From a virus, in IMG/VR virus record IMGVR_UViG_3300017751_000001: a stretch of 64,000 nucleotides of DNA. The stretch is one strand, 5' to 3'. Position 1 is the first letter of the stretch, and each line of letters starts with the position of its first letter. Positions 12,189 to 25,949 of the stretch are shown here, piece after piece. The position numbers and the translations under genes are program-made. The notes under the pieces were generated by a model. The model searched no databases. It was not told the DNA's origin and saw nothing but the letters and a program-made list of their open reading frames with translations.

Positions 12189-12896
12189 ATGGAAAAGTAC
12201 TTAATAAATGAAATCGAAACGTTTGCAGTCAATGATGAATTGGATGCAAGAGTAGAGTTAATGGGATGGGAAGAAAAACCAATCGTATACATCGATAATT
12301 TTTATAAAAATCCCGATCAAGTTAGAGATTTGGCTCTAAGAATCCCTCCAACTTTAAATAGAAGAATTTGTGGAGGAGTGCCAGGTGGTAGAGTTAGTGC
12401 AAATTTTGATCTTGATCATTTAGTTCCAATCTGGACTGACATAGCCAAATCAGTTTATGGATTGACAAAAGAGGAAGAAGAACGATTTATCTGTGGATGC
12501 AAACAACTTACATTCTCGGTAAATGTAACTGCATCAGATCAAGCACTTATTCCACACGTAGATTCTCCTATAGATAGTAAAAATTTAGTTAGGGGTTGGG
12601 CAGGTGTAATTTATTTAAACACGCCAGAAGAATGTCATGGTGGCACTGGATTTTATACTTATAAGGGAATGAGTTGTGTTGATGTATACCAATCTGGAAT
12701 CTGGAAAGAGGACACCGTAAGAGATAGTGTTGGTCCTTGGGAACTTGTTCACTTAGCAGAAATGAAATACAATAGATTGATTGTATATCCAGATAATTTT
12801 CTTCATGGTGTATATCAACATCCAGGTCACTTTGATCAACAGGTGTATAGACTCGCTCAATCAATATTTCTACCTATTCCAACGATAGTATACTGA
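12189..12896 (+). CDS. 2OG-Fe(II) oxygenase-like protein (DUF6445-like)
   Basis: IDNFYKNPDQVR, PHVD (HxD), WAGVIYLN, GGTGFY and NRLIVY..FLHG. Paralogue of 21950..22594. Confidence 0.75.
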   Translation: MEKYLINEIETFAVNDELDARVELMGWEEKPIVYIDNFYKNPDQVRDLALRIPPTLNRRICGGVPGGRVSANFDLDHLVPIWTDIAKSVYGLTKEEEERFICGCKQLTFSVNVTASDQALIPHVDSPIDSKNLVRGWAGVIYLNTPEECHGGTGFYTYKGMSCVDVYQSGIWKEDTVRDSVGPWELVHLAEMKYNRLIVYPDNFLHGVYQHPGHFDQQVYRLAQSIFLPIPTIVY

Positions 12897-13699
12897 TGAT
12901 TTTAATTACTGGATATAAAGGGTTTATTGGATCTCACTTTCAAAACTATTTTGAAACTGAAGGAGAACATGATGTTATTGGAATTGATGTCGATAACGCA
13001 TGGAAATTTCTGTCCAAATTTAATGGATGGGAAAATGTAGACTTAATAATTCATAATGGAGCAATCTCATCTACAACAGAAAAAAACTGGGTAAAGATTG
13101 CACATTACAATCAATCTTTTACTGCTCACCTATTTTCACATGCAATTGAACATAAAATTCCTATAAAGTATGCATCCTCGGCATCTGTGTATGGTAATCA
13201 AACAAGAGAATGTAGGAAGATCAATCCACTGAATCAATATGCAATTTCAAAACTAATCATAGATTATTACGTATTGGACAATATAGATCGGTTTGAAAGT
13301 ATCCAAGGATTTAGATATTTTAATGTATACGGAACTGGAGAAGATCATAAGGGAGACCAAGCAAGTCCAGTCTCAAAGTTTACCAAACAGATCAAAGAGA
13401 CTGGGAAACTTAAATTGTTTGAAGGATCGGATAATTTTTATAGGGACTTTGTATGTGTAGATGATATAGTCAATATTGTCATGAATAATGACGCTCCCAG
13501 TGGAATCTATGATATTGGAACTGGCAAACCAATGTCATTCCAGAGAGTTGCAGAGTTAGTTGCTAAAAAAGAAGGGGGAGAAATCGAAATGATTCCTTTC
13601 CCAGATCACCTAAAAGGTAAGTATCAAGATTATACCTGTGCAGATATGAAATGGTTAAACTATAGACTCAAGACGTTAGAGGAATATCTTGCACCATAA
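12896..13699 (+). CDS. hldD: ADP-L-glycero-D-manno-heptose 6-epimerase
   Basis: Extended SDR: TGYKGFIGS, HNGAISSTTE, ASSASVYG, YxxxK (YAISK) and RYFNVYG..EDHKGDQAS, matching HldD/RfaD. Confidence 0.9.
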   Translation: MILITGYKGFIGSHFQNYFETEGEHDVIGIDVDNAWKFLSKFNGWENVDLIIHNGAISSTTEKNWVKIAHYNQSFTAHLFSHAIEHKIPIKYASSASVYGNQTRECRKINPLNQYAISKLIIDYYVLDNIDRFESIQGFRYFNVYGTGEDHKGDQASPVSKFTKQIKETGKLKLFEGSDNFYRDFVCVDDIVNIVMNNDAPSGIYDIGTGKPMSFQRVAELVAKKEGGEIEMIPFPDHLKGKYQDYTCADMKWLNYRLKTLEEYLAP

Positions 13700-14276
13700 A
13701 GTTAATAAAATTTGTAGCGATATATTTTTCTTCGGAAATGGGAGCATTTCCTTTATGTTTGAACAAATAATTGCATGGAAATAATAGTACTTTCCCCTTC
13801 TCTGGTCTTACTGCTATATTCCAATCTGGAAATTCTGTTTCTCCACCTTCCTCAACATCATTGAGATACATAATGCAAGCAAATATTCTACTTACTGTAC
13901 CAAATGCATGTTGGTCCACATGAGTCTTAAATATTCCTTCGTTCTTGGGATATACCCTAACGCAATAATCATTTAGAGTCATGCTATCTTCTGGAACTGG
14001 ATATCTAGAACCTGCTTCCCTAAAAGCAGACATAGTGATCTCTGTCATCTTGTCTGAGATAGGTGCTTCTGGAGGGACTAGAGTCTGAATAGCATTTTTA
14101 AAATCTTTTTTAACACTAGGTCCAATGTTTTTTCCGTTTTTTGTGCTATAAACGCACCCATCACTTTGAAGATGTTTGTTCGATTTAAACCATTCCAATA
14201 TTTCATCACAGGTTTTGTCTGGGATGTGATTTTTCAAAACCACAATTAGATCTGTTATTTTTTCAGCTCTCATCAA
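13668..14276 (-). CDS. 2OG-Fe(II) oxygenase (prolyl-hydroxylase-like)
   Basis: HVD triad start, IMYLNDVEEGGETEF, PEKGKVLLFP and distal His (FKHKG). Confidence 0.88.
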   Translation of the reverse strand: MMRAEKITDLIVVLKNHIPDKTCDEILEWFKSNKHLQSDGCVYSTKNGKNIGPSVKKDFKNAIQTLVPPEAPISDKMTEITMSAFREAGSRYPVPEDSMTLNDYCVRVYPKNEGIFKTHVDQHAFGTVSRIFACIMYLNDVEEGGETEFPDWNIAVRPEKGKVLLFPCNYLFKHKGNAPISEEKYIATNFINFMVQDIPLTS

Positions 14277-14653
14277 TCTCCAGATTCAATTCTATTACTA
14301 TCTTCATCAAAATGTTCTGTACTAAATTCAAATAATTCAGTATCGGAAAGACCATACATTCTATGTTTCATTCCAATAGGAACATGAAACTTATCTCCAG
14401 TTTCTAGTACAGATACATTAGCGACTTCAATATTGTCATCCCACCCATAGTAGATTTTAATTTTTCCACTTTGAACATAGAAAACTTCGTCTTTCTTTTT
14501 ATGAAAGTGCCAAGAACATTGTTTTCCTTTTGCAATGAAAAGGAGTTTGCCACAATATTGTTCTGAGTTAACTATCCATTTTTCATATCCCCATCCTTTG
14601 GACACGAACTTAATTGGTTCTGCTGCTCTAGGTATCGAAGAATTCATCGGCAC
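14273..14653 (-). CDS. Cupin-fold protein, putative sugar(-phosphate) isomerase
   Basis: KGWGYEKW, cupin motif 1 SWHFHKKKDEVFYVQSG and motif 2 GDKFHVPIGMKHRM. Confidence 0.8.
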   Translation of the reverse strand: MPMNSSIPRAAEPIKFVSKGWGYEKWIVNSEQYCGKLLFIAKGKQCSWHFHKKKDEVFYVQSGKIKIYYGWDDNIEVANVSVLETGDKFHVPIGMKHRMYGLSDTELFEFSTEHFDEDSNRIESGD

Positions 14654-14954
14654 TTACTCCCTTGTCGTCAATGTAATAGTCAGCTGAAGGTTTTCCTAAG
14701 AAAAGATCGTGAAACATACATCCCCATTCTAACAGTTGTTTGTGAGTGAAGTCGTAATACTTTTCCTTAGCTTGTTCTCGATCATTATTAAATGTACCCA
14801 TACCTCTAGCGGTATGGTAGATTATCTGATGTCCTTTAATATATAGATCATTTATTTTAGAGATCCTTTCTGGGATAGGTACAGCTTCAGTATATCTGCC
14901 TTCTCCTTTTCCAGGAATACAGATAGTGCCGTCTATATCTACATTATATCTCAT
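14628..14954 (-). CDS. Minimal HAD-superfamily phosphatase
   Basis: Motif I VDIDGT, motif II YHTARG, motif III/IV GKPSADYYIDDK; 108 aa, capless. Confidence 0.82.
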   Translation of the reverse strand: MRYNVDIDGTICIPGKGEGRYTEAVPIPERISKINDLYIKGHQIIYHTARGMGTFNNDREQAKEKYYDFTHKQLLEWGCMFHDLFLGKPSADYYIDDKGVSADEFFDT

Positions 14955-16078
14955 TCGGGTCCTAAGTATAAGTTTTTAAGTGGATATTTTTTCATGGAAC
15001 CAGTTTTGGAATAATATTGAGCTTTAGATACTCCAATACTAATTCCAGCATCACTACTAATAGGTTCCACATATAGTTTAACATCTTTTGGCAACTTATC
15101 CAAATACCAATAATTTGCAGAACAGTTTAATGCACATCCACCAGTTAAAATAATATTTTTACGTTTCGATATTGCAAGAGCGTCCAATAAAATTTTTAAC
15201 ATATGAGTCTGAAAATCTTCCTGAAGTCTCCAAGCAAGGTTAGCTAATTTTTCAAAGTGATTCTCAGTATTTTCAGCTTCTCTATGATGAGGTAAGTAAT
15301 CATATGGAATAAAATTACATCCATACTTAGACCTATAAAAAAGATTTGAATCTACATTAAATCCATCAGAAAGGAAAGATCTAATATTGGGATCTTCTTT
15401 ACCGTATGAAGCAAGACCCATTACTATTCCAGCCCCAAGTCCACCAAAACCCATATATGAGGATACTGCGGAGTACACCATACCAATTCCACATGTCCAC
15501 TCACCTTTATGTTCAGATTCATCACAACTATCATAAGAGGGTGTAGACATCCCTCCTAAAGAATTCATATTACATGGATAAGATGCATCGAATATGGAAA
15601 CAACCTCATGCCTATCTTCTGCAGGAGTAAGGAAGTTTCCCATACCATCAACCACAACTACAACTGCATCATCAAATCCAGAATTATAGAATCCACAATA
15701 AGCATGAAATAAGTGATGATCAAAAAACTTTTCAAATTTTTCTTTGACTATTTCATACTTAAAAGAGTTTTGTTCATGTGGTAGAAGTTTTAATGATTTA
15801 GAAACATACATTATTAACATATCACTACTACGATCTAATGTACTTACTCCCAGCTTGTCTTTAGATATTAATGCAGATGTTGCTACTTCATATTTTTCAA
15901 TCTCATCCATGGTAAGTCCACCAAGAACCATGTTACATGCATGAAATGGATCGTTATCATATTTTAATCTAGACAATCTTTCTTCTTCCAGGAAAAGTTC
16001 AATGTCCCCATCTTCAGAAAGAACTGATACTGAGGAGTTATGGGATAAGTGAAATCCTACTTGTTTTTTCAATTTCAT
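14951..16078 (-). CDS. NodU/CmcH-type carbamoyltransferase, N-terminal (Kae1-like) domain only
   Basis: EEERLSRLK, HHLFHAY, VVDGMG, MGLASYG, LTGGCALN and EPISSDAG. Ends at LYLGPE with no C-terminal domain. Confidence 0.85.
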   Translation of the reverse strand: MKLKKQVGFHLSHNSSVSVLSEDGDIELFLEEERLSRLKYDNDPFHACNMVLGGLTMDEIEKYEVATSALISKDKLGVSTLDRSSDMLIMYVSKSLKLLPHEQNSFKYEIVKEKFEKFFDHHLFHAYCGFYNSGFDDAVVVVVDGMGNFLTPAEDRHEVVSIFDASYPCNMNSLGGMSTPSYDSCDESEHKGEWTCGIGMVYSAVSSYMGFGGLGAGIVMGLASYGKEDPNIRSFLSDGFNVDSNLFYRSKYGCNFIPYDYLPHHREAENTENHFEKLANLAWRLQEDFQTHMLKILLDALAISKRKNIILTGGCALNCSANYWYLDKLPKDVKLYVEPISSDAGISIGVSKAQYYSKTGSMKKYPLKNLYLGPE

Positions 16079-17193
16079 TTTGGACCTAAATACAAATTTT
16101 TGAGAGGATGTTTTTTGTATGATTCAGTTTCAGTGTAATACAAATATTTTGCAAGTCCCAAAGAAACTCCAGCATCATTACTAATAGGTTCTACATATAG
16201 TTTGACATCTTTTGGTAACTTGTCTAAGTACCAATAATTTGCAACACAATTTAGAGCGCATCCACCAGTAAGAACAAGATTTCGCATATTTGTTCTTTCA
16301 AGTGCATCGGTGAGAAGAAATAACATATGAGTCTGAAAATCTTCTTGAAGTCTCCAAGCAAGATTTGCAAGTTTTTGGAAATGTTTTTCTATGTTTACTG
16401 CTTCTACATGAGGAGGGAGATAATCATATGGAATAAAGTTTGCACCAAATCTGGTTCTGTAAAATAAATTCGAGTCTACAGTATATCCATCATCTAAAAT
16501 GAAAGATTTAATATTGGGATCTTCTTTACCGTATGGAGCAAGACCCATTACTTTTCCAGCCCCAAGTCCACCAAAACCAAGATAAGACGATACCGCAGAA
16601 TATGCCATACCGATTCCGCAGTTCCATCCACCTTTATGTTCTGCAGAATCACAAGCCATGTAAGTTGGTGTAGACATTCCAACAATTGGAACCATTATAT
16701 TTGGATAACCACCAATGAAAGTAGTAGCAACTTCTACATATCTATCATTATTCCTTAGTGTATTTCCCATAGCATCAACTACTACAATCGCTGCATCATC
16801 AAATCCAGAATTATAGAATCCAGAATAAGCATGTAAAAGATGATGCTCGTTATATATTACATTTTGTGCGTGCTTATGACTATGAGCACACCACTTATCA
16901 AAATCTTTATAAGTTAGTATCTTAGAGAGTGTTCTATTGACTGTCTCTGAAGCAATTTGTAGAGCGTTTCCTCCTTTAGGATCCTCATCTAAAAGTCCAG
17001 TCATTCCAAGATTGTATGTATTGGAATAATCTTCAGAATCTATTCCCCTAAAATGTTTGTCCAATACATGAAATGGGTCTCCATCATGTTTGATTCTGGA
17101 ATATCTCTCTTCTTCAATGAATATCTCTGTTTCTCCTTGATCGACAATACAGAGTGAGGAATCATGGGAAAGATTAAGTCCAACTTGTTTCAT
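16075..17193 (-). CDS. NodU/CmcH-type carbamoyltransferase, N-terminal (Kae1-like) domain only; tandem paralogue
   Basis: EEERYSRIK, HHLLHAY, GKVMGLAPYG, LTGGCALNCVAN and EPISNDAG. Ends at LYLGPK. Long stretches of near DNA identity with 14951..16078. Confidence 0.87.
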   Translation of the reverse strand: MKQVGLNLSHDSSLCIVDQGETEIFIEEERYSRIKHDGDPFHVLDKHFRGIDSEDYSNTYNLGMTGLLDEDPKGGNALQIASETVNRTLSKILTYKDFDKWCAHSHKHAQNVIYNEHHLLHAYSGFYNSGFDDAAIVVVDAMGNTLRNNDRYVEVATTFIGGYPNIMVPIVGMSTPTYMACDSAEHKGGWNCGIGMAYSAVSSYLGFGGLGAGKVMGLAPYGKEDPNIKSFILDDGYTVDSNLFYRTRFGANFIPYDYLPPHVEAVNIEKHFQKLANLAWRLQEDFQTHMLFLLTDALERTNMRNLVLTGGCALNCVANYWYLDKLPKDVKLYVEPISNDAGVSLGLAKYLYYTETESYKKHPLKNLYLGPK

Positions 17194-17735
17194 ACTGGTC
17201 CTCCTGGAGGCTGATCATAATAAATGTTACCTGATATAGTTATGCCTTCATTCCCAGGGGGAACAAAATGTTCAATGAATGACGGGAAAATTATAATATT
17301 TTCAGAAGAAACTTTTGGCATATACTCTATAGGAAAAGCATGACCTAGATATCCCCATTGATTCATTTGATTATGTCTACTTGGGGAAAGAAAAACAGTC
17401 TTAGATTCCTCAACATCCACATAAATTACAAAACTCCATTGAGATCCAGAATGAATATGTGGATCTTGCCAGTCTGTTTTCTCATACTTGTTACGCCAAA
17501 CTGAACCAATATAAAATGGTTTCTCTGTATATTGACCTATACACTCCCAAAGAATCCTGCCAAGATAATTATATGACTCTTGAGTAAGTTCATCTGCCTC
17601 CATTGTAGTTGGAGTACGAGAAATAAAAGTTGGTTTGTATTCTGGTTCTTCTTTAAACTCTAATTTACTAATATCAATTTTTTCGATAAAGAAAGGCATC
17701 CAGAATACTGGATTGGGTTGTTTAAAGTTGTCCAT
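17190..17735 (-). CDS. Putative 2OG-Fe(II) oxygenase (TIGR02466-like)
   Basis: QDPHIHSGSQWSFVIYV, IIIFPSFIEHFV and ITISGNI. Confidence 0.8.
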   Translation of the reverse strand: MDNFKQPNPVFWMPFFIEKIDISKLEFKEEPEYKPTFISRTPTTMEADELTQESYNYLGRILWECIGQYTEKPFYIGSVWRNKYEKTDWQDPHIHSGSQWSFVIYVDVEESKTVFLSPSRHNQMNQWGYLGHAFPIEYMPKVSSENIIIFPSFIEHFVPPGNEGITISGNIYYDQPPGGPV

Positions 17736-18498
17736 TATAAATTCTCATAATGTCATCTTTGGTTAGTTTATATGTTCCTGAGTTTTCTACGGAAATAGAA
17801 GCTGCCATATTTGCAAAATTAATAGAATTCTGCATATCTTTTGTGCGAATAAATTCAACCACTAAGGCAGAGAGGAAGGTATCACCAGCTCCACATACAT
17901 CAAATACATTGACCTTTCTTGGTGTGAAATTAATACCCCTCCACCTACATCCATTTGATCCTAAAGTTACGATTAAATTAGTATCATGAGGCATAAATTC
18001 ACGATCAAGTAAATCATATTCTTTTTTGTTTATCTTGAAGAAAACATTAGGTTGTTGAAATAATTTAGTTTTCTTTGTGTCAATAAAAATTGGTCCTTTA
18101 AAATATGTGCAGATAATACGTAATGCTTGATCTGTAAGAAAACCTTTATCATAGTCTGATATTACTAGTGCATCATATTTACTATGCATAAATGCCATTC
18201 TTACCTGAGGAGCACTTAATGGAGTTACCTCGGGAGTTGTATCAACTCTGAGTAATTGATAATTACTTTTTCTATCTACAAATCGAGTTTTCTTGATTGT
18301 TTCTTTTTGCGTAATTAGATTTGTTCGGACACCAAAAGATCTCAAATTATCATTGACATTTGATGCCATTCCAGGTGTTACTTCTGTGGATGTCTTGTCC
18401 AGAACAGGAATAGGTCCTTCTGGGTTTAACCTAGAACAATCTCCATAGATGTATTCATCATCACATGAATCTCCAATAACTAATATATTACATTCCAT
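17722..18498 (-). CDS. hldA: D-glycero-D-manno-heptose-7-phosphate kinase (stand-alone HldE kinase domain, PfkB family)
   Basis: VIGD..DEYIYGDCSRLNPEGPIPV, ISDYDKG and DVCGAGDTF match the HldE/RfaE domain I. Confidence 0.88.
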   Translation of the reverse strand: MECNILVIGDSCDDEYIYGDCSRLNPEGPIPVLDKTSTEVTPGMASNVNDNLRSFGVRTNLITQKETIKKTRFVDRKSNYQLLRVDTTPEVTPLSAPQVRMAFMHSKYDALVISDYDKGFLTDQALRIICTYFKGPIFIDTKKTKLFQQPNVFFKINKKEYDLLDREFMPHDTNLIVTLGSNGCRWRGINFTPRKVNVFDVCGAGDTFLSALVVEFIRTKDMQNSINFANMAASISVENSGTYKLTKDDIMRIYNGQL

Positions 18499-18905
18499 CA
18501 GTCCAAGTTGTTAATTAGAATTTTTTTGATAATTGAGCTCGAAGAATAATCTCCAACTCTTGGTAAGAATCTAACTTCTTTGACAATATCTTTTCCAACA
18601 ACATCACCATTTTCCCAGTCATTTCCTAAGAGGAGAATATCTGGTTTATAAACTCTGATAAGATCTTCCAATCCCTTTCGATCATTGAAATAGTGGACAA
18701 CATCAATATACTTGATTGATTCGAGCATTGATATTCTATAACAAAGATCATTTATGGGTTTGGTTTGACCTTTATCTTTTTTAATCTTCACATCACTATC
18801 TGTAGCGACAATGACACGATCACCCAGAGATCTCGCTACTCTGAATAGTTCTATGTGTCCAGGATGTAAAATATCAAACGTGCCATTTACAAATACAGTC
18901 TTCAT
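18498..18905 (-). CDS. hldC: Heptose-1-phosphate nucleotidyltransferase (stand-alone HldE domain II)
   Basis: NGTFDILHPGH (HxGH), GDRVIVATDSD, KGQTKPIN and YSSSSII; translationally coupled to the kinase. Confidence 0.85.
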   Translation of the reverse strand: MKTVFVNGTFDILHPGHIELFRVARSLGDRVIVATDSDVKIKKDKGQTKPINDLCYRISMLESIKYIDVVHYFNDRKGLEDLIRVYKPDILLLGNDWENGDVVGKDIVKEVRFLPRVGDYSSSSIIKKILINNLD

Positions 18906-20701
18906 TAATTTTTAGCCTCAATCATCAACCCATGTTCGGGTAAGTAGAGATATTCGATATCAGATTCAGAAAGGGTTCTGCAAGCATCATCAATTGTTTC
19001 AACGAGAGGCTCGCCCCCCAAATTAAAAGAAGTGTTGAAGACAATAGGACAACCAGTAGCTTCATAAAATTCTTTAATCAAATCATAATAATTTTTATTT
19101 TGTTCTTCGGTGACTGTTTGAATCCTACAAGTACCATCAACATGAATGATTGCAGGAATTTTCTCTTCAATCCCATCCTGACATTTAACAGCATACATCA
19201 TGAATGGGGTTTCGTCCATACCACGAAGATCAAACCACTCATGAACATGTTCTTTAAGGATTGATCCAGCAAAAGGTCGGAAGTATTCACGATTTTTTAC
19301 TTTATTAACAAAATCCTTTCCATCTGGATCACGAGGATCATAAAGAATAGACCTGTTACCTAGTGCTCTAGGACCAGCCTCGGATCTACCTTGGAAGATA
19401 GCAACAATATTTTTATTGGTAATTAAATCAATTACATCTTTGTTTGTGGCTTCAAAAACTCTTGTAGATCCATACTTATCTGCAGTATCTACAATTTGAT
19501 CAGTCGAATACATATATTCAAATCCAGTATAAAGATCTTTTAGGGGTTCGCGGACTTGTGCATCTTTAGTTACTCTATGGTATTGGAGAAGTGCAGCTCC
19601 AATTGCAGTACCAGCATCATTACTTACAGGTTCTACAAATAGATTAATACCTTCATCTTTTAGTTGTTCAAGATACCAATAGTTAGCAACACAATTTAGT
19701 GCATATCCACCAGTCAATACTACATTAGTTTGACCAGTCATATTTACAACTTTACGAATTAGGTCCAGAACCATTTGTTGAGACTCTACTTGAATAGCGT
19801 ATGCCATGTCTCTACGGTTCTGTAAGAGGGTCATATCACCTTCAAAGTCATAGTCAGTCTTAAGGTATTTAAACCGCCCCTGATTGACTAGGGCACCGTT
19901 AGGATACGTTGGTGTAATGAGGTCTCTATTGGATGTTTTCCACTCAGAGGCCCCGTTATAATCCGTATACACATCTGGAATATCGTCATTGGGGGTTCCA
20001 TATGGGAATAGACCCATAGTTTTACCAGCTTCAATAGGAGACCACCCACAATACTGTGTTACAGCTTCATATGCCTTAGTGATACCAGCAGTATCATCAA
20101 GAATCATTTCATGAGTTCCTTCCTCACCTTCCCTTTCACTACTAAACTCTTCAAATCGAATAGAGTTCCATGGACCTCTTCCGCCTTGATGTTTGTAGAT
20201 TGTCTTGAATTCTGATGGATACTCACAATTGAACATGGATTCTAGTTCCCATGTCATTTCATTTTCCCCATTAATATTCATGGGAATGAAAGTACCTGCA
20301 CCATCAACAACAACAGCTGCAGCACGACTAAATCCAGACCTATAGAAGGCACATGCTGCGTGAAGTTTATGGTGAGTTGAACTCAAATCAATAACTTGAG
20401 GGTGTTGATTTGGATTTTCTTTCCTATCAATTAGTCCTAACTTTCTTGCCAATGCAACATAGATTGGATCTCCACTAAAATCACAATGCCCAGCCTCACT
20501 TAGTGGTTGAGTATGTGCGATAACGAGATAATCAAGAGTATCCGTGAAGTCCAAAATTCTAGTCATACAAGCATATGGACCTCCATCATACTTGTTCCTA
20601 GAAAGTCGTTCTTCTTCTATTGATAAGACAATTTCACCATCTTTTAGTAGACAGAGCCCTGAGTTGTGACCTCGGGCAATAGCCGCAATCCATTGTGACA
20701 T
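18905..20701 (-). CDS. Full-length NodU/CmcH/TobZ-family O-carbamoyltransferase
   Basis: N-domain EEERLSRNK, HHKLHA, GKTMGL, GGYALNCVAN. C-domain EAGPRALGNRSIL, VKNREYFRPFA, HVDGTCRIQTV, NTSFNLGGEP. Confidence 0.95.
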   Translation of the reverse strand: MSQWIAAIARGHNSGLCLLKDGEIVLSIEEERLSRNKYDGGPYACMTRILDFTDTLDYLVIAHTQPLSEAGHCDFSGDPIYVALARKLGLIDRKENPNQHPQVIDLSSTHHKLHAACAFYRSGFSRAAAVVVDGAGTFIPMNINGENEMTWELESMFNCEYPSEFKTIYKHQGGRGPWNSIRFEEFSSEREGEEGTHEMILDDTAGITKAYEAVTQYCGWSPIEAGKTMGLFPYGTPNDDIPDVYTDYNGASEWKTSNRDLITPTYPNGALVNQGRFKYLKTDYDFEGDMTLLQNRRDMAYAIQVESQQMVLDLIRKVVNMTGQTNVVLTGGYALNCVANYWYLEQLKDEGINLFVEPVSNDAGTAIGAALLQYHRVTKDAQVREPLKDLYTGFEYMYSTDQIVDTADKYGSTRVFEATNKDVIDLITNKNIVAIFQGRSEAGPRALGNRSILYDPRDPDGKDFVNKVKNREYFRPFAGSILKEHVHEWFDLRGMDETPFMMYAVKCQDGIEEKIPAIIHVDGTCRIQTVTEEQNKNYYDLIKEFYEATGCPIVFNTSFNLGGEPLVETIDDACRTLSESDIEYLYLPEHGLMIEAKN

Positions 20702-20710
20702 TTAAATACC

Positions 20711-21886
20711 TCAATTAATATCAGTTTTTAGTAGATTCTTTACTTCGTTTTTGAAACCTACTTTTGGTTTTTTAGGTTTTTCTACAATATTTGCAGGTGG
20801 TTGATTCCACTGAGGTTGTGGCATCAATGCAGCACTTCCTGGCAACACTGCAGTATTTCCTGGTGCAATTGCAGGAGTTGTTGAAGTTCCAGGCGGGCAT
20901 GTAGGACATTCTGTGCTTTGTGGAGGAGTATAAGTTCCTTTAAATGAAACGGGTTTACCTAAATGTTTTCTAGCAGAACGCAAAATAGATTTGACTTGTT
21001 CCGCAGACATTTCCATGGATTGATCATTATACCGATCAACAGTTTCATCCATAGTTAATCTAATTGGAGAATATTTCCTTCTGTCTAAACCAATATCAAT
21101 TAGATCAAAGTTACTATCTTCTGGATAAGAAATATTAACTGGATAAGTAGATCCAATAACTACAGTTGCTTTTTTGTCAAGAGACTTGCAAATATGTTGA
21201 CCGATACTATCTACACCTATAAAGTGATCAGCAACATCTATAATAGCAGCCCATACTCTAATGTCCTCAATTTGAGGTCTTGCAATTTTATATTTTGACT
21301 TCTCTTCATTTTCTTCTACTGGAAACTGGAGTTCAGACATTACAATGATACCATAATCTTTTTTAAGATCATTGATAATATCTACAGTGTTTACGAGAGA
21401 CATACTTCTTGACGAAGCATCTGCGATAAACTCTCCAACTTGCTGAACACCTCTACCGAAAGGCTGGATTACTACGACTTTATCTTTACCACTTACTGAT
21501 TTCACTTCTTGAATCATATTGTAACCAGCAATAACCTCCATCTTAGTGAGATTGAGAGTTGGTTTGGGAAGTTCTCTGGGTTCATCTAGACCATTGATTT
21601 CCATATCAAAAGCCTGTGTCAAACTACATTTTTGATTGTAGTAATGCCACATTCTATATGGTTCTGGTGAAACACAATCTCTATGTTTCAAATGTTCCTG
21701 AAACAAATTCTTGTGCCACATATCATAAACTTTACCATCTAAAGTTGGATGACCTTTAAAAAAGTCAGTTCCTCCTTCAGCAACGATGATAAAATCATCA
21801 TGTGTTTCTGCATATTTTTCAAATGCAGGAATGGAGCAAAGCACTCTACCGGCTCCTCCATTGACAAAAAATGCTTTGGATCTCAT
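20711..21886 (-). CDS. GT-B fold glycosyltransferase, family 9 (heptosyltransferase)-like
   Basis: N-terminal GGAGRVLCSIPA, VVVIQPFG, and GT9-like signature WAAIIDVADHFIGVDSIGQHICKSLDKKATVVIGST. ATG at 21886 preferred over the TTG at 21901. Confidence 0.72.
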   Translation of the reverse strand: MRSKAFFVNGGAGRVLCSIPAFEKYAETHDDFIIVAEGGTDFFKGHPTLDGKVYDMWHKNLFQEHLKHRDCVSPEPYRMWHYYNQKCSLTQAFDMEINGLDEPRELPKPTLNLTKMEVIAGYNMIQEVKSVSGKDKVVVIQPFGRGVQQVGEFIADASSRSMSLVNTVDIINDLKKDYGIIVMSELQFPVEENEEKSKYKIARPQIEDIRVWAAIIDVADHFIGVDSIGQHICKSLDKKATVVIGSTYPVNISYPEDSNFDLIDIGLDRRKYSPIRLTMDETVDRYNDQSMEMSAEQVKSILRSARKHLGKPVSFKGTYTPPQSTECPTCPPGTSTTPAIAPGNTAVLPGSAALMPQPQWNQPPANIVEKPKKPKVGFKNEVKNLLKTDIN

Positions 21887-21932
21887 ATAAAAAAACTCCA
21901 AACAGTATAATAAAGAATGATCTATTCTGATG

Positions 21933-21940
21933 TATTTAGT
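21933..21940 (-). promoter_or_regulatory. Late promoter variant ACTAAATA heading the glycosylation operon
   Basis: Intergenic, 47 nt upstream of the GT9-like ATG; identical to the motifs upstream of gp8 and gp19. Confidence 0.65.
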
Positions 21941-21949
21941 CTACCAAAA

Positions 21950-22594
21950 TTACATGAATAATACTTGTACAAGTCTTGGAAACTCAGTAAACATACCCCT
22001 TTTAAGAACTGCTCCATGCATGTGATCACATTCATATAACACCATCCTATTGTATTTCATTTTAGATTCATATTCTAATCTTGGTACGGCTGATGGATCG
22101 TCTGGCATCCAAGCATAAAAATTAGTTCCTCCATCACATTCCTGATCTTTATTGAGGTAGATTACTGCAGCCCACTTATAATTAGTGGAATCTTTATGGA
22201 ATGTATATGTATGTTTTTTCTCATTGAATCTAGTTTCAATATCATTTCCATTAGTTACATTTGCCATAAATTTAGTATCTCTCCAAAAAGTATCATCGTA
22301 CTCTGGATTCCAAAAATCAAATTGACATGCTTTTTCAAAAACTGATTTTAAATTCTCATCAAATCCTTCTATATTTTCAATAACTCTTGATCCTATAAGA
22401 TTTCCCGTATATTTCTTATCGGTCTTGCGAGTACCATTAAGAGCAATTTTTCGTACTTCATCGGGATTTTTATAGAAATCATCTATAGTAATTACATATC
22501 TCCATACATGCCCTAGGTCATTTTTAGCATGATCATATATTTTTTTTACTGTCGTCTTACGAGATTCATTTAGTTCAAACATATTTCTTCCCAT
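21950..22594 (-). CDS. 2OG-Fe(II) oxygenase-like protein (DUF6445-like)
   Basis: IDDFYKNPDEVR, FHKD, WAAVIYLN, GGTNFY and NRMVLY..HMHG. Paralogue of 12189..12896. Alternative ATG at 22582. Confidence 0.75.
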   Translation of the reverse strand: MGRNMFELNESRKTTVKKIYDHAKNDLGHVWRYVITIDDFYKNPDEVRKIALNGTRKTDKKYTGNLIGSRVIENIEGFDENLKSVFEKACQFDFWNPEYDDTFWRDTKFMANVTNGNDIETRFNEKKHTYTFHKDSTNYKWAAVIYLNKDQECDGGTNFYAWMPDDPSAVPRLEYESKMKYNRMVLYECDHMHGAVLKRGMFTEFPRLVQVLFM

Positions 22595-22595
22595 T

Positions 22596-22617
22596 AAAAA
22601 AGGGAGCCTTAGCTCCC
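22596..22617 (-). terminator. Rho-independent terminator
   Basis: Minus strand GGGAGC-TAAG-GCTCCC followed by TTTTTT, downstream of the chaperone gene. Confidence 0.85.
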
Positions 22618-22644
22618 ATATAATATTATATATCTACCTCAGAC

Positions 22645-23412
22645 TCAACCAATAACACCACTACTTGGGGGCGCCCAATCGGCAGATGCATCTGCAGGTT
22701 CTTCTGGGTCAGATGGAGGATTAGTAAAGTATGGTACGTCAGGGAACATATAGTATGCCATATTTGGAGAAACACCAGCTGCAGCTAATTCAGCGGGAAG
22801 ATCTCTCAACTTCTGACGATATGCTTTCCATATAGTCTTCATGTCCTCGGGCATGTCCTCTGCAATTTGACCATCACTACCACTGAGAATTCCATTTCTA
22901 TGATCTCTGATCTCATCCCAAGTTAGATCATCGGCTCTACCAATAAGTTTCTCATTAACACTGAATGCATGTACTGTTGGAGCTCCATCAACGATTCTTA
23001 CCGATGCACCATCATAAAGATCTTCGATAAACAAATGTTGATTATACTTTAATTGTCTGTACCCCTGAGCAGTCATATCGGGACAATCTGGATGAGCAAC
23101 GTCATCCTCCATGTCTCGGCTTTCTTCTTTTTCATCGATGACTGGTCCTCTCAGTTGGCAGATGAGTGGATACTCGGTGCAATCCACTTCAAACATTTGA
23201 GTTACATCGGCTGGAATTGGTCTTCCATCAGCCATGTCATCTTCGGTCAGGGGCCCATGTACTTCGGTGCCATCAGCACCAATTTGTAGCCAAATTTTAT
23301 CGGGACCATCATAAGTAACGGCTCTTGTTTTGCCTTCTGAATATGAGTGATCTCTTAGGAAATCGTTTGGAACGGGCATGTTCCAATCGTGGGAAATAAT
23401 TTCTGTTGCCAT
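22645..23412 (-). CDS. Tail fibre assembly chaperone-like protein
   Basis: C-terminal WDEIRDHRNGILSGSD...WKAYRQKLRDLP matches the phage tail assembly chaperone motif (R..R...L..SD...W..YRQ.LRDLP). Follows the Cys-rich triplet. Confidence 0.75.
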   Translation of the reverse strand: MATEIISHDWNMPVPNDFLRDHSYSEGKTRAVTYDGPDKIWLQIGADGTEVHGPLTEDDMADGRPIPADVTQMFEVDCTEYPLICQLRGPVIDEKEESRDMEDDVAHPDCPDMTAQGYRQLKYNQHLFIEDLYDGASVRIVDGAPTVHAFSVNEKLIGRADDLTWDEIRDHRNGILSGSDGQIAEDMPEDMKTIWKAYRQKLRDLPAELAAAGVSPNMAYYMFPDVPYFTNPPSDPEEPADASADWAPPSSGVIG

Positions 23413-23446
23413 GGTTAGATTTTTTCAGGTTAACATCCTTCCCAGT

Positions 23447-23454
23447 TATTTATA
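23447..23454 (-). promoter_or_regulatory. T4-type late promoter TATAAATA
   Basis: Exact consensus 35 nt upstream of the chaperone ATG. Confidence 0.8.
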
Positions 23455-23463
23455 ACAAAACAT

Positions 23464-23488
23464 AAAAAAAAGACCCCTTTCGAGGTCT
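23464..23488 (-). terminator. Rho-independent terminator
   Basis: Minus strand AGACCTC-GAAA-GGGGTCT (GNRA loop, one G-U pair) followed by a T tract. Confidence 0.85.
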
Positions 23489-23528
23489 AAATGGACAATC
23501 GGGACATCCTGCCCCACAACATCCAGAA

Positions 23529-24326
23529 TTACATATAACTAATTTTAACAAGACCACTTCCACCTGTTCCACCTTGTCCACAACATCTTTCACAGTAAGA
23601 TGTGACTGCACCCTGACCACCGTGTGCGTATGGAGCTCTCCAGCATCCACAACGAACCCAACAATGTCTAACAGTAGAATTAACTGCCATAGTACCCAAG
23701 AATGGAGCTCCTGTGGGTCTACTTTCATTGAAGTAACAATGACAGTTCCAACCAGCAGAACCATATCCCTTTCTAGTACCACCACCATGGTTACCCATTC
23801 CGAAGTCTCCTCCATGAGCACCAGGTTGAAAACAACACTTAGCCATAGAACTATAGCAAGTTGTAGACCAAGAGTTGGTAGCACAACCTCTAGTGCCACC
23901 CATTGCACAGAAGTTACTTAAATTATATCCATTTACATATGAAACACATCCATCACATCCAACACACTCTCTAGAACAACAACGATAAACACCACCAGCA
24001 CATACAGAATATGCACAACCAGCTTTTGTTCCAATGGTTTTTGCGTTATAGTATCCACCCTGGGCTCCATGCCAGTTATAACATCTATTACAAGAACATG
24101 TTCCGTGTCCGTTTCCTCCAGCACCCCAGAGTTCCCAATAAATTCGTTGTACTCCAGTAGGAACAGTCCAAGCGCAGCAACATCCAGAAGTCATTGCCGT
24201 AGGATCACCATATATCCACTTAACATTCCAATTGGAGAATGCTCCACTCGCTAGTTGAGTGTTAGTAATAGACCCATCAACAATTTGTGAGTTACTAATC
24301 TGTTTATAAGAAGCGTAATTAGCCAT
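23529..24326 (-). CDS. Cys/Gly-rich tail-associated protein, paralogue 3
   Basis: 265 aa, 26 Cys by my count. Shares MANY.SYK, GCCC.W.VP.GV, WGAGGNGHG.CSC.RC and CCGQGGTGG.G.V.I.Y with the two upstream ORFs. Confidence 0.85.
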   Translation of the reverse strand: MANYASYKQISNSQIVDGSITNTQLASGAFSNWNVKWIYGDPTAMTSGCCCAWTVPTGVQRIYWELWGAGGNGHGTCSCNRCYNWHGAQGGYYNAKTIGTKAGCAYSVCAGGVYRCCSRECVGCDGCVSYVNGYNLSNFCAMGGTRGCATNSWSTTCYSSMAKCCFQPGAHGGDFGMGNHGGGTRKGYGSAGWNCHCYFNESRPTGAPFLGTMAVNSTVRHCWVRCGCWRAPYAHGGQGAVTSYCERCCGQGGTGGSGLVKISYM

Positions 24327-24346
24327 TTGGAGTCCTATTTAATAGT

Positions 24347-24354
24347 TATTTATC
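24347..24354 (-). promoter_or_regulatory. Late promoter GATAAATA
   Basis: NATAAATA motif 21 nt upstream of paralogue 3. Confidence 0.65.
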
Positions 24355-25153
24355 AGAAGTAAGTGATTTTGACGAGTCCGCCACCACCAGTACCGCCTTG
24401 TCCGCAGCAACTTGAACCACAATAAGTAGTCATTGCACCTTGACCACCATGACCATAAGGAACAATCCAGCAACCACAACGAACCCAACATTCACGAAGT
24501 GATTGGTGAACATCAGTTCCAATGAGTGGAGCAGAAGTTGGAGTAGTCATATGAACATAACAGTGACACCAACGACTACGGTTGGTAGAATATCCACCCA
24601 TAGTCCAAGTGTCTCGTAGAGTACCCATACCAAACTGACCACCATTACTTGTAGGAGCCACACAGCAGTGCCATTCTGCATTACAGGCGGTCTCCCATGA
24701 GGTATTGGCGTGACCACAAGATCCACCGTATGCACAGAAGTTACTTAGATTATACCCATTTACATATGATGAGCATCCGTTACATCCCGCACATTCCCTA
24801 GAGAGGCATGGATATACACCAGCTGCACATACAGAATATGTACATCCAGCGGTGGTATCTAACATCACACTGTTATACAGTCCACCGCCAGCACCTCTGT
24901 AGTGATGACATCTACTACATGAACATGCACCATGTCCATTACCACCAGCACCCCAAGCCTGGATCCAGAGTTTTTTAACTCCAGTAGGAACAACCCAAGC
25001 GCAGCAACATCCAGGTGAACATCGGCACATGGTTCCGTAAAACCACTTTACTCCGAATGTTGAGGTTGGGGAAGTGGAGAATTTTGTAGATCCTAAGATT
25101 CCATTATCTAGTTGATCTCCGTTAATTTTTTTGTAACTTGCGTAATTGGCCAT
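24353..25153 (-). CDS. Cys/Gly-rich tail-associated protein, paralogue 2
   Basis: 266 aa, 27 Cys; same motif framework. Confidence 0.85.
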   Translation of the reverse strand: MANYASYKKINGDQLDNGILGSTKFSTSPTSTFGVKWFYGTMCRCSPGCCCAWVVPTGVKKLWIQAWGAGGNGHGACSCSRCHHYRGAGGGLYNSVMLDTTAGCTYSVCAAGVYPCLSRECAGCNGCSSYVNGYNLSNFCAYGGSCGHANTSWETACNAEWHCCVAPTSNGGQFGMGTLRDTWTMGGYSTNRSRWCHCYVHMTTPTSAPLIGTDVHQSLRECWVRCGCWIVPYGHGGQGAMTTYCGSSCCGQGGTGGGGLVKITYF

Positions 25154-25166
25154 TGATTCCCCTTGA

Positions 25167-25949
25167 TTACATGTATGTGATACGTACTATTCCAGATCCA
25201 CCAGTACCGCCTTGTCCGCAGCATCTTTCACAATATGAGGTCATTGCACCTTGACCACCAGCACCATATGGAGTCGTCCAGCAACCACAGCGCATCCAAC
25301 AGTAGGCACTATGGGTTTTATTACCAATTCCAATGAATGGAGCAGCACCAGTACAAGTCTGAGTATTACTTTGTCCACAATGACAGTTCCAGTGACCACT
25401 GAATCCTGGCCAATGGGGTGCGACTGCAAAGTCTCCACCATAACTTCCTGCTTGCATACAGGTGTGATAAGTAGAATGACAGAGGTTAGACCAATCTGTA
25501 TTAGCCTCTCCTCTACCGCCACCCACCGCACAGAAGTTAGTTAGGTTGTATCCATTTACATATGATGCACATCCGTGACATCCAACACATTCTCTAGAAC
25601 AGCATCTATAGACGCCAGCAGCACATACTGTATATTGACAACTTCCTGCGGTAGAAATCGTCTTGGTGTTGAAACTGCCACCGCCAGCACCTCTGTAGTG
25701 ATGACATCTGTTGCAAGAACATGCACCATGTCCATTACCACCAGCACCCCAGAGTTCCCAAGTAACTTTGCCAACTCCAGTCGGTACTGTCCAATTACAG
25801 CAACAACCAGAAGTGAGTACTCCTGGATCACCATAAATTGTCTTTACATTCCAGCTCGGTCCAACACCAGTAGAAAGCTTTTCAATGGTGATGGACCCAT
25901 CTGGAACCTGGGCCGCAGAGACTTTTTTATATGATCTATAGTTGGCCAT
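25167..25949 (-). CDS. Cys/Gly-rich tail-associated protein, paralogue 1
   Basis: 260 aa, 25 Cys; same motif framework. Confidence 0.85.
   Translation of the reverse strand: MANYRSYKKVSAAQVPDGSITIEKLSTGVGPSWNVKTIYGDPGVLTSGCCCNWTVPTGVGKVTWELWGAGGNGHGACSCNRCHHYRGAGGGSFNTKTISTAGSCQYTVCAAGVYRCCSRECVGCHGCASYVNGYNLTNFCAVGGGRGEANTDWSNLCHSTYHTCMQAGSYGGDFAVAPHWPGFSGHWNCHCGQSNTQTCTGAAPFIGIGNKTHSAYCWMRCGCWTTPYGAGGQGAMTSYCERCCGQGGTGGSGIVRITYM

Follow-up and report, generated by a model that had tools for sequence, protein, structure and literature searches.

Class III O-carbamoyltransferases, such as TobZ (PDB 3VEN), GdmN, NovN, VtdB, NodU/NolO, CmcH, SxtI, and WapO, consist of an N-terminal Kae1-like domain and a C-terminal YrdC-like domain, and the characterized members hold both domains on one chain (PMC9633730). 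WapO (PA5005) accounts for heptose 7-O-carbamoylation in the Pseudomonas lipopolysaccharide (LPS) core, a precedent for carbamoylated heptose (PMC8005017). Here, we analyzed a 64,000-nt stretch of viral DNA (the window) from IMG/VR record IMGVR_UViG_3300017751_000001. It encodes one full-length enzyme with the same two-domain layout and two shorter proteins, half A and half B. Both halves show the Kae1-like fold of this class, along with its H,H,D,D metal site, its general-base His, and its GGxxxN adenosine motif, but are without the YrdC-like domain. The source record is 74 kb long (CheckV completeness, 32%), and the window is a fragment of a T4-like cyanomyovirus whose closest cultured relative is Synechococcus phage Sf-FS3 (83.6% nucleotide identity across the region), with phage S-SSM7 further off. 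From comparative evidence, we consider it rather likely that the halves are active, acceptor-specific transferases supplied with carbamoyl adenylate (carbamoyl-AMP) in trans; we infer the donor, the mode of handover, the acceptors, and the difference between their sites.

Two described systems resemble this arrangement in part. HypF1 of Cupriavidus necator H16 is a natural carbamoyltransferase that has only a single domain out of the canonical HypF set of three, with the full-length paralog HypF2 in the same organism, and the truncated protein is thought to require carbamoyl adenylate from elsewhere (PMC9100943). However, HypF1 belongs to class II, acts on a HypE cysteine in hydrogenase maturation, and is not in the family of PF02543 proteins. 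In the synthesis of N6-threonylcarbamoyladenosine (t6A), the same two folds are found on separate proteins, TsaC/Sua5 (YrdC-like) and TsaD/Kae1/Qri7, and an acyl-adenylate, threonylcarbamoyl-AMP (TC-AMP), is made by one and used by the other. TsaC releases TC-AMP to TsaD, and TC-AMP is diffusible. The t6A pair differs from the window in its donor, TC-AMP, and its acceptor, tRNA A37. Moreover, the halves are not members of the TsaD/Kae1/Qri7 group: they fall outside PF00814, and their gene neighborhood is one of sugar metabolism. Our searches of the literature available to us found no description of split or N-domain-only (N-only) class III carbamoyltransferases. We regard the window as the 1+2 form, one full enzyme with two halves, of a widespread, uncharacterized split variant of this well-known enzyme family.

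The open reading frames of the three carbamoyltransferases agree exactly with those of a preliminary description of the window, which had been made from the sequence alone:

18905..20701, minus strand: full-length class III O-carbamoyltransferase, 598 aa (Pfam PF02543 2.3e-27, PF16861 1.8e-61)
16075..17193, minus strand: half A, 372 aa, Kae1-like transfer domain alone (PF02543 1.8e-23)
14951..16078, minus strand: half B, 375 aa, Kae1-like transfer domain alone (PF02543 4.4e-16)

The preliminary description assigned both domains to the longest product and a Kae1-like N-terminal domain alone to the other two, and the domain searches agreed: the 598-aa product matched PF02543 (N-domain) and PF16861 (C-domain), and both halves matched PF02543 above the curated cut-off with PF16861 absent. 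The sole further Pfam match among these products was a weak one to HypF_C_2. The YrdC-like C-domain of the 598-aa protein carries a GPRALGNRS motif, and the catalytic residues, with H12 as the general base, were unchanged in 25 orthologs. Its dN/dS (nonsynonymous to synonymous substitution rates) was 0.05–0.14, and it is 93% identical to its Sf-FS3 ortholog. It appears to be a complete TobZ-type O-carbamoyltransferase, in which the C-domain would make carbamoyl-AMP from carbamoyl phosphate and ATP and the N-domain would move the carbamoyl group to a hydroxyl. The whole 74-kb record yielded a single PF16861 match and no YrdC/Sua5 (PF01300) match, so that no hidden or frameshifted C-domain lies near the halves. 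Lacking the same-chain C-domain that defines the class III family, the halves are N-domain-only relatives rather than canonical members, and because the YrdC-like domain is entirely absent, they would be unable to make carbamoyl-AMP themselves.

The halves nevertheless keep the catalytic apparatus of the N-domain. By alignment to TobZ, the general-base His is retained in both, as are the four metal ligands (H,H,D,D), in line with the HH..H metal motif noticed earlier. H10 of half A aligns with the TobZ general base H14 (GdmN H27), with a corresponding His in half B, and H117/H121, D140, and D340 of half A align with the TobZ metal ligands H114, H118, D137, and D338 (PDB chain numbering +6). 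For GdmN, the metal ligands H133, H137, D156, and D333 and the base His have been named (PMC9633730). Across 63 N-only proteins and approximately 104 full-enzyme N-domains from 100 loci, H10, H117/H118/H121, D140, D340, GG310-311, and N315 (the GGxxxN motif) were invariant. The proposed clean ends at LYLGP[KE] were also found: half A terminates in PLKNLYLGPK and half B in PLKNLYLGPE, and these C-termini align with PLKDLYTGFEY of the full enzyme, which is the start of the interdomain linker. The downstream starts are coupled as described, with ATGA overlaps at all three junctions (3/3): that of the 2-oxoglutarate (2OG) oxygenase with half A, that between the two halves, and that of half B with the 108-aa gene.

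An AlphaFold2 model of half A (predicted local distance difference test score, pLDDT, 86.7) had the Kae1-like domains of TobZ, GdmN, NovN, and VtdB as its best PDB matches (E ~1e-14), followed by TsaD/Kae1 with template modeling (TM) scores of 0.47–0.52; TsaD-TsaB structures and pantothenate kinases were also among the fold matches. Kae1-family enzymes are often paired with inactive paralogs, and the halves might therefore be non-catalytic modulators of the full enzyme (scaffold, specificity factor, or regulator), as TsaB is for TsaD; the TsaD-TsaB matches and the replacement K214I in half B would fit such a role. In the N-only proteins, however, the general base, the four metal ligands, and the adenosine motif, all of which TsaB has lost, are kept in every member, which is unexpected for a purely structural partner, and we consider a modulator role improbable. 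When the full enzyme and half A were modeled as a complex, from alignments of 25 and 17 rows, respectively, the score was 0.00 in each of two runs, which we use as evidence neither way.

The half genes are under purifying selection, with dN/dS of 0.10 for half A (against locus L014; L numbers denote the loci compared) and 0.15–0.22 for half B (against L014 and L015), and showed no relaxed selection. The 5.75-kb arrangement was matched at 77–99% of sampled words in DNA sequencing runs from ten studies (2019–2025), although several of these runs may represent the source sample. By every available sequence test, the halves behave as functional genes. The opposite view, that they are decaying, functionless remnants of truncated genes, has a parallel in Lyngbya wollei, where a lone truncated sxtI accompanies the lack of carbamoylated toxins and is regarded as inactive (PMC3037375). 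However, the frames in the window are intact, their ends fall at a domain boundary, their starts are coupled, the arrangement recurs in the runs above, and N-only proteins have diverged into about 100 clusters without change of catalytic residues. Decay is thus already contradicted by the data on selection and conservation, and we regard it as scarcely credible.

The preliminary description had called stand-alone transfer domains unusual, and this did not hold. A search with half A against 5.8 billion proteins gave 3,627 matches, and approximately 100 of the best 120 protein clusters were N-only proteins of 295–390 aa, with full-length forms appearing from ≤41% identity. The N-only clusters were themselves diverged (approximately 100 at 40–58% identity), with invariant catalytic residues. 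Such genes are present in two cultured phages, S-SSM7 (SSSM7_123, 369 aa) and Sf-FS3 (SfFS3_107, 385 aa), annotated as "Nol-like carbamoyltransferase" or "carbamoyltransferase domain-containing protein"; they occupy the same place in the same cassette, likewise as a full enzyme plus a half, and in the literature on those genomes we found no discussion of the half nature of the short gene. S-SSM7 and Sf-FS3 have one half each, whereas two halves occur in the window, in L014, and in a small number of further contigs, and three in L063.

Our survey took in 80 loci from IMG/VR, six from genomes, and five from assemblies, and N-only genes proved widespread in cyanomyovirus heptose cassettes. One half accompanied one full enzyme in 34 loci and two full enzymes in 11, and two halves accompanied one full enzyme in four; L014 combined two halves with a full enzyme cut by the contig end, and L063 combined three halves with one full enzyme. 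A full or contig-cut enzyme lay upstream of the half in 55 of the 55 loci with at least 3.5 kb of upstream DNA. The six loci showing no full enzyme were each ended by a contig edge less than 2.8 kb upstream, and in a seventh locus without an intact full enzyme (L094), the full gene was broken into two frames. The complete genome of Sf-FS3 holds one half and two full enzymes and that of S-SSM7 one half and three full enzymes, with no free C-domain in either; the remainder of the window phage genome probably holds another full enzyme. A third, distant clade of full carbamoyltransferases (504–551 aa) is encoded approximately 4–6 kb downstream of the half in ten loci (L009, L023, L026, L027, L031, L032, L034, L036, L057, and L083) and elsewhere in the genomes of Sf-FS3 and S-SSM7. 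This clade is a lead as an alternative source of carbamoyl-AMP for the halves.

In other cyanophages, the two domains are encoded by separate genes. The cultured phage S-RIM44 has a C-domain-only (C-only) gene of 181 aa (HOQ83_gp035), the sole C-domain in its genome, followed directly by an N-only gene of 337 aa (gp034; L101:2468-4089, i.e., NC_047734 193921-195542). Two metagenomic contigs of 115–119 kb carry an abutting C-then-N pair beside ThyX and PhoH (L102:6001-7814 and L103:6001-7610); across S-RIM44 and these contigs, the C-only genes encode 181–188 aa and their N-only partners 337–415 aa. The C-then-N order, which is split and circularly permuted, suggests a tandem duplication of a full gene with subsequent loss of the outer halves. 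In L104:647-6561, one C-only gene (186 aa) occurs with two N-only genes (365 and 355 aa; 51% mutual identity) that have intact catalytic residues, and no full enzyme is present in the 12.6 kb of this contig that the analysis covered. The proteins of S-RIM44 and L102–L104 are, like the halves of the window, free Kae1-like transfer proteins with intact catalytic residues whose activating function lies on another polypeptide. In the S-RIM44 type, however, the activating domain is free and adjacent, in the order C then N, whereas the only C-domain visible in the window is fused to its own N-domain; the S-RIM44 type also differs from the window halves in its paralog clade and in its genomic neighborhood (ThyX/PhoH).

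A search with the S-RIM44 C-only protein gave approximately 2,966 matching protein clusters of 99–317 aa, part of which are fragments. Free C-domains are 60–70% identical to the C-domain of the window full enzyme, but identity falls to about 30% for the N-domains, a conserved-C, variable-N pattern that would be predicted if a shared donor module served variable acceptor modules. Because C-only genes abut N-only genes in other cyanophages (S-RIM44) and one contig (L104) combines one C-only gene with two N-only genes, the domains routinely exist as separate proteins, and working in trans appears to be a recurrent natural design. The neighbors in L104 include genes for GTP cyclohydrolase I, radical-SAM, PRA-PH, and family-B DNA polymerase proteins, and its context may be nucleic-acid modification rather than sugar; PRA-PH co-occurs with a 5-hydroxymethylcytosine (5hmC) carbamoyltransferase (PMC8670742).

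As an alternative, the halves might be active solely when docked tightly to a C-domain protein in a hetero-complex, which would rebuild a closed TobZ-like chamber and channel the carbamoyl-AMP. In TobZ and GdmN, the intermediate passes within a closed chamber (PMC9633730); the C-only and N-only genes of the relatives abut or overlap and are thus probably co-translated, and the halves of the window are translationally coupled in an operon. Conversely, the C-domain of the full enzyme is already paired with its own N-domain, so that a second N-domain would need competition or oligomerization, and at least two genes separate the half from the full gene in most cassettes. Obligate docking therefore seems unlikely to us, and supply in trans to separately encoded transferases remains the reading that we prefer.

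The halves descend from a full-length paralog by loss of the adenylation domain. The direction of change is given by the slot itself, which in more distant cassettes holds a full-length gene: L069 has the same cassette order, and the position of the half after PfkB is occupied by a 597-aa enzyme with both domains. In a maximum-likelihood tree of 167 N-domains, the N-only proteins nest inside the full-length clade II, a second N-only group (L063, L072, and L075) lies within clade I, which is the clade of the first, full enzyme, and a single N-only gene (L033) falls in clade III. The free tree requires four state changes, of which we claim as firm at least two independent losses of the C-domain (in clade II and in the clade I trio), each in a genome that keeps a full enzyme.

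Halves A and B had been described as a recent tandem duplication, which is at odds with their divergence: the proteins are 58% identical, dS is approximately 1.06, the 5′ third of the genes is unalignable, and the 3′ two-thirds are 74% identical in DNA. On the tree, B clusters with the lone halves of L018 (96%) and L015 (91%), which are the nearest relatives, and then with the Sf-FS3 half (70%), whereas A branches outside this group together with its 92% ortholog in L014. L015 and L018 carry B only, although their full genes are 96–97% identical to that of the window, and counterparts of half A were found only in L014 and protein cluster P0004. B is thus the resident gene of the nearest relatives and A an extra copy. 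Because near relatives carry B only and A branches outside, A either goes back to an old paralog that most lineages have lost or was gained by recombination. A blastn alignment of the window with L018 ran on into half A, covering approximately 130 nt at its 5′ end, and might have marked a recombination joint, but we judged it to be an extension of the high-scoring segment pair through moderately similar sequence.

Divergence between A and B is unevenly distributed, with identities of 23% over residues 40-116 and 44% over residues 146-190 against 70–82% elsewhere (the core). The GdmN helix lining the acceptor pocket (PMC9633730) would fall within residues 40-116, by an approximate mapping based on the offset from the metal motif. 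This concentration of change in segments expected to line the acceptor pocket suggests that A and B serve different acceptors. Between the window and Sf-FS3, dN was 0.20 for half B and 0.037 for the full enzyme, i.e., the half diverges about five times faster. Such rapid divergence would also be compatible with halves that are active but use a different activated donor, for example another acyl-adenylate, TC-AMP made by the host TsaC, or ATP in a kinase-like ASKHA reaction on heptose, in which case they would require no supplier of carbamoyl-AMP. The ASKHA/Kae1 fold accommodates varied adenine nucleotides, the fold neighbors of half A include TsaD/Kae1 and pantothenate kinases, and no interaction with the full enzyme was obtained. 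However, the halves nest among bona fide two-domain carbamoyltransferases with identical catalytic and nucleotide motifs and are always found in genomes with a C-domain, and the C-only and N-only pairs of relatives keep both activities genetically linked after their separation. We hold a change of donor to have a low probability and continue with carbamoyl-AMP as the likely donor.

In the mechanism that we propose, the halves would use their conserved site for nucleotide and metal to bind carbamoyl-AMP from a separate polypeptide. This donor would be either the full enzyme encoded nearby or a further full carbamoyltransferase of the same phage, and each half would carbamoylate its own, different hydroxyl positions on the heptose-containing product of the cassette. 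Precedents are the truncated HypF1, the t6A pair, heptose carbamoylation by WapO, and the lone truncated sxtI of L. wollei, which accompanies a lack of carbamoylation (PMC3037375). The preliminary description had one activating module feeding three transfer modules in trans. The conserved halves, the co-occurring full enzyme, and the separated domains support the supply in trans, but a single activating module may be wrong for the genome as a whole.

Several points weigh against this proposal. The evidence for it is comparative. Complete relatives carry two to three full enzymes, and the donor is therefore not necessarily the adjacent one; in a record that is 32% complete, the total count of carbamoyltransferases may extend beyond the fragment. 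The co-occurrence of halves and full enzymes is drawn from one family of related cassettes, which are not phylogenetically independent. Half B carries K214I (half A numbering) in the GxGKxMG motif. Lys occupies this position in almost every relative, including the orthologs closest to half B (L018 and L015), and Thr is found in L014. Because Thr also occurs there in several full-length enzymes of clade II, position 214 is not strictly essential. A single origin of the 59 clade II N-only genes was not rejected (approximately unbiased, AU, test; p = 0.155), and we have dropped the claim of two independent origins within clade II that the free tree requires. Finally, in four runs labeled or guessed as RNA (two of which, X15 and X16, look like the same data), low-depth contigs matched the full gene, the GT9-like gene (below), PfkB, and pieces of half B (15081-15474 and ~15848-16128), with almost no coverage of half A; such contigs can show neither transcription nor its absence.

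A broader extrapolation is possible, but we hold it only tentatively and think it more doubtful than the proposal itself. A conserved carbamoyl-AMP synthase module, fused or free and with C-domains 60–70% identical between clades, would feed one to three fast-evolving, acceptor-specific Kae1-like transferases via a released intermediate, as TsaC feeds TsaD, in a modular two-component system. How a heptose glycan on tail fibers or the host surface is carbamoylated would then depend on the number and type of halves, which would hence influence adsorption or host range.

The scan of genome contigs gave the six loci only, all of them on contigs of metagenome-assembled genomes and several resembling mis-binned phage DNA, and has little bearing on cellular genomes. 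The cyanophage carbamoyltransferase cassette is present on two contigs binned into a bacterial and an archaeal genome, L094 (NHFO01000067, "Flavobacteriales bacterium TMED113") and L096 (PAZU01000047, "Methanobacteriota archaeon SP67"). Their proteins nest among viral sequences on the tree, and mis-binning of phage DNA is therefore probable. In the control genomes of Thermotoga maritima and Lactococcus lactis, PF02543 was matched above the cut-off and PF16861 was not. N-only relatives may thus also exist in cellular genomes without any C-domain, which bears on the model of supply in trans.

The carbamoyltransferase genes are part of a sugar-modification operon with genes for ADP-heptose-type activation, a possible heptosyltransferase, 2OG oxygenases, and a cupin. 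Besides the three genes listed above, the cassette and its divergent neighbors comprise:

20711..21901, minus strand: 396-aa protein heading the cassette, possibly a GT9-like heptosyltransferase as a lead only (phrog_8954, function unknown)
18498..18905, minus strand: cytidylyltransferase-like nucleotidyltransferase, similar to the C-terminal half of HldE (PF01467 2.7e-18)
17722..18498, minus strand: PfkB-family sugar kinase, similar to the N-terminal half of HldE (PF00294 1e-15)
17190..17735, minus strand: 2OG-Fe(II) oxygenase, stop overlapping the half A start (PF13759 2.8e-08, ATGA junction)
14628..14954, minus strand: 108-aa protein, start coupled to the half B stop (phrog_1238)
14273..14653, minus strand: cupin (PF07883), at the operon end
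13668..14276, minus strand: 2OG-Fe(II) oxygenase (PF13640), at the operon end
12189..13699, plus strand: divergent pair of a 2OG/DUF6445-like protein and an NAD-dependent nucleotide-sugar epimerase (phrog_1644, phrog_540, Sf-FS3 annotation)

All genes from 13668 to 25949 are on the minus strand, and the cassette lies between the tail-fiber genes and the neck genes gp13/gp14, syntenic with relatives. Its order (~395-aa protein, full carbamoyltransferase, cytidylyltransferase-like protein, PfkB, 2OG oxygenase, half or halves, ~108-aa protein, cupin, 2OG oxygenase, and epimerase) is that of the syntenic cyanomyovirus heptose or "LPS" cassette, T4-GC 302-308. This set of cyanophage "LPS genes" was left without functional assignment by Sullivan et al. 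2010 (PMC3037559). We also considered a DNA-modification role for the cassette, by comparison with the 5hmC carbamoyltransferase (PMC8670742), and rejected it: the neighbors are sugar-activation genes rather than thymidylate-synthase-like or deoxycytidine monophosphate (dCMP) hydroxymethylase genes.

Some cassette products merit separate mention. The 396-aa protein is kept upstream of the full enzyme in every cassette seen; it had no match in the Pfam search, and its neighbors by Atlas (language-model) features were viral clusters named ADP-heptose:LPS heptosyltransferase family (GT9), with a score of 0.98. The 108-aa protein, which also gave no match in the Pfam search, is labeled "phosphoheptose isomerase" in relatives and PHROGs, yet its N-terminus reads MRYNVDID. 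This resembles motif I of haloacid dehalogenase (HAD) phosphatases and not a SIS isomerase, and the label may therefore be wrong, the protein being GmhB-like rather than GmhA-like. Between the giant fiber-like gene and the cassette, three tandem paralogs of 260–266 aa (phrog_4205, function unknown) occupy 23529-25949 on the minus strand, and this triplet is shared with the related loci L009–L013.

The wide occurrence of N-only enzymes under selection, their descent from full-length paralogs, and the free C-only neighbors in related phages speak for a natural capacity to uncouple the two half-reactions, in contrast to the characterized TobZ/NodU-type enzymes, which pass the labile carbamoyl-AMP inside a closed chamber on one chain. 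If supply in trans is correct, these phages would hold a natural mix-and-match system of one activating and several acceptor modules, useful for engineering the carbamoylation of sugars and natural products. It would also offer phage biology a handle on the long-unassigned cyanophage "LPS genes" that lie inside the structural gene block.

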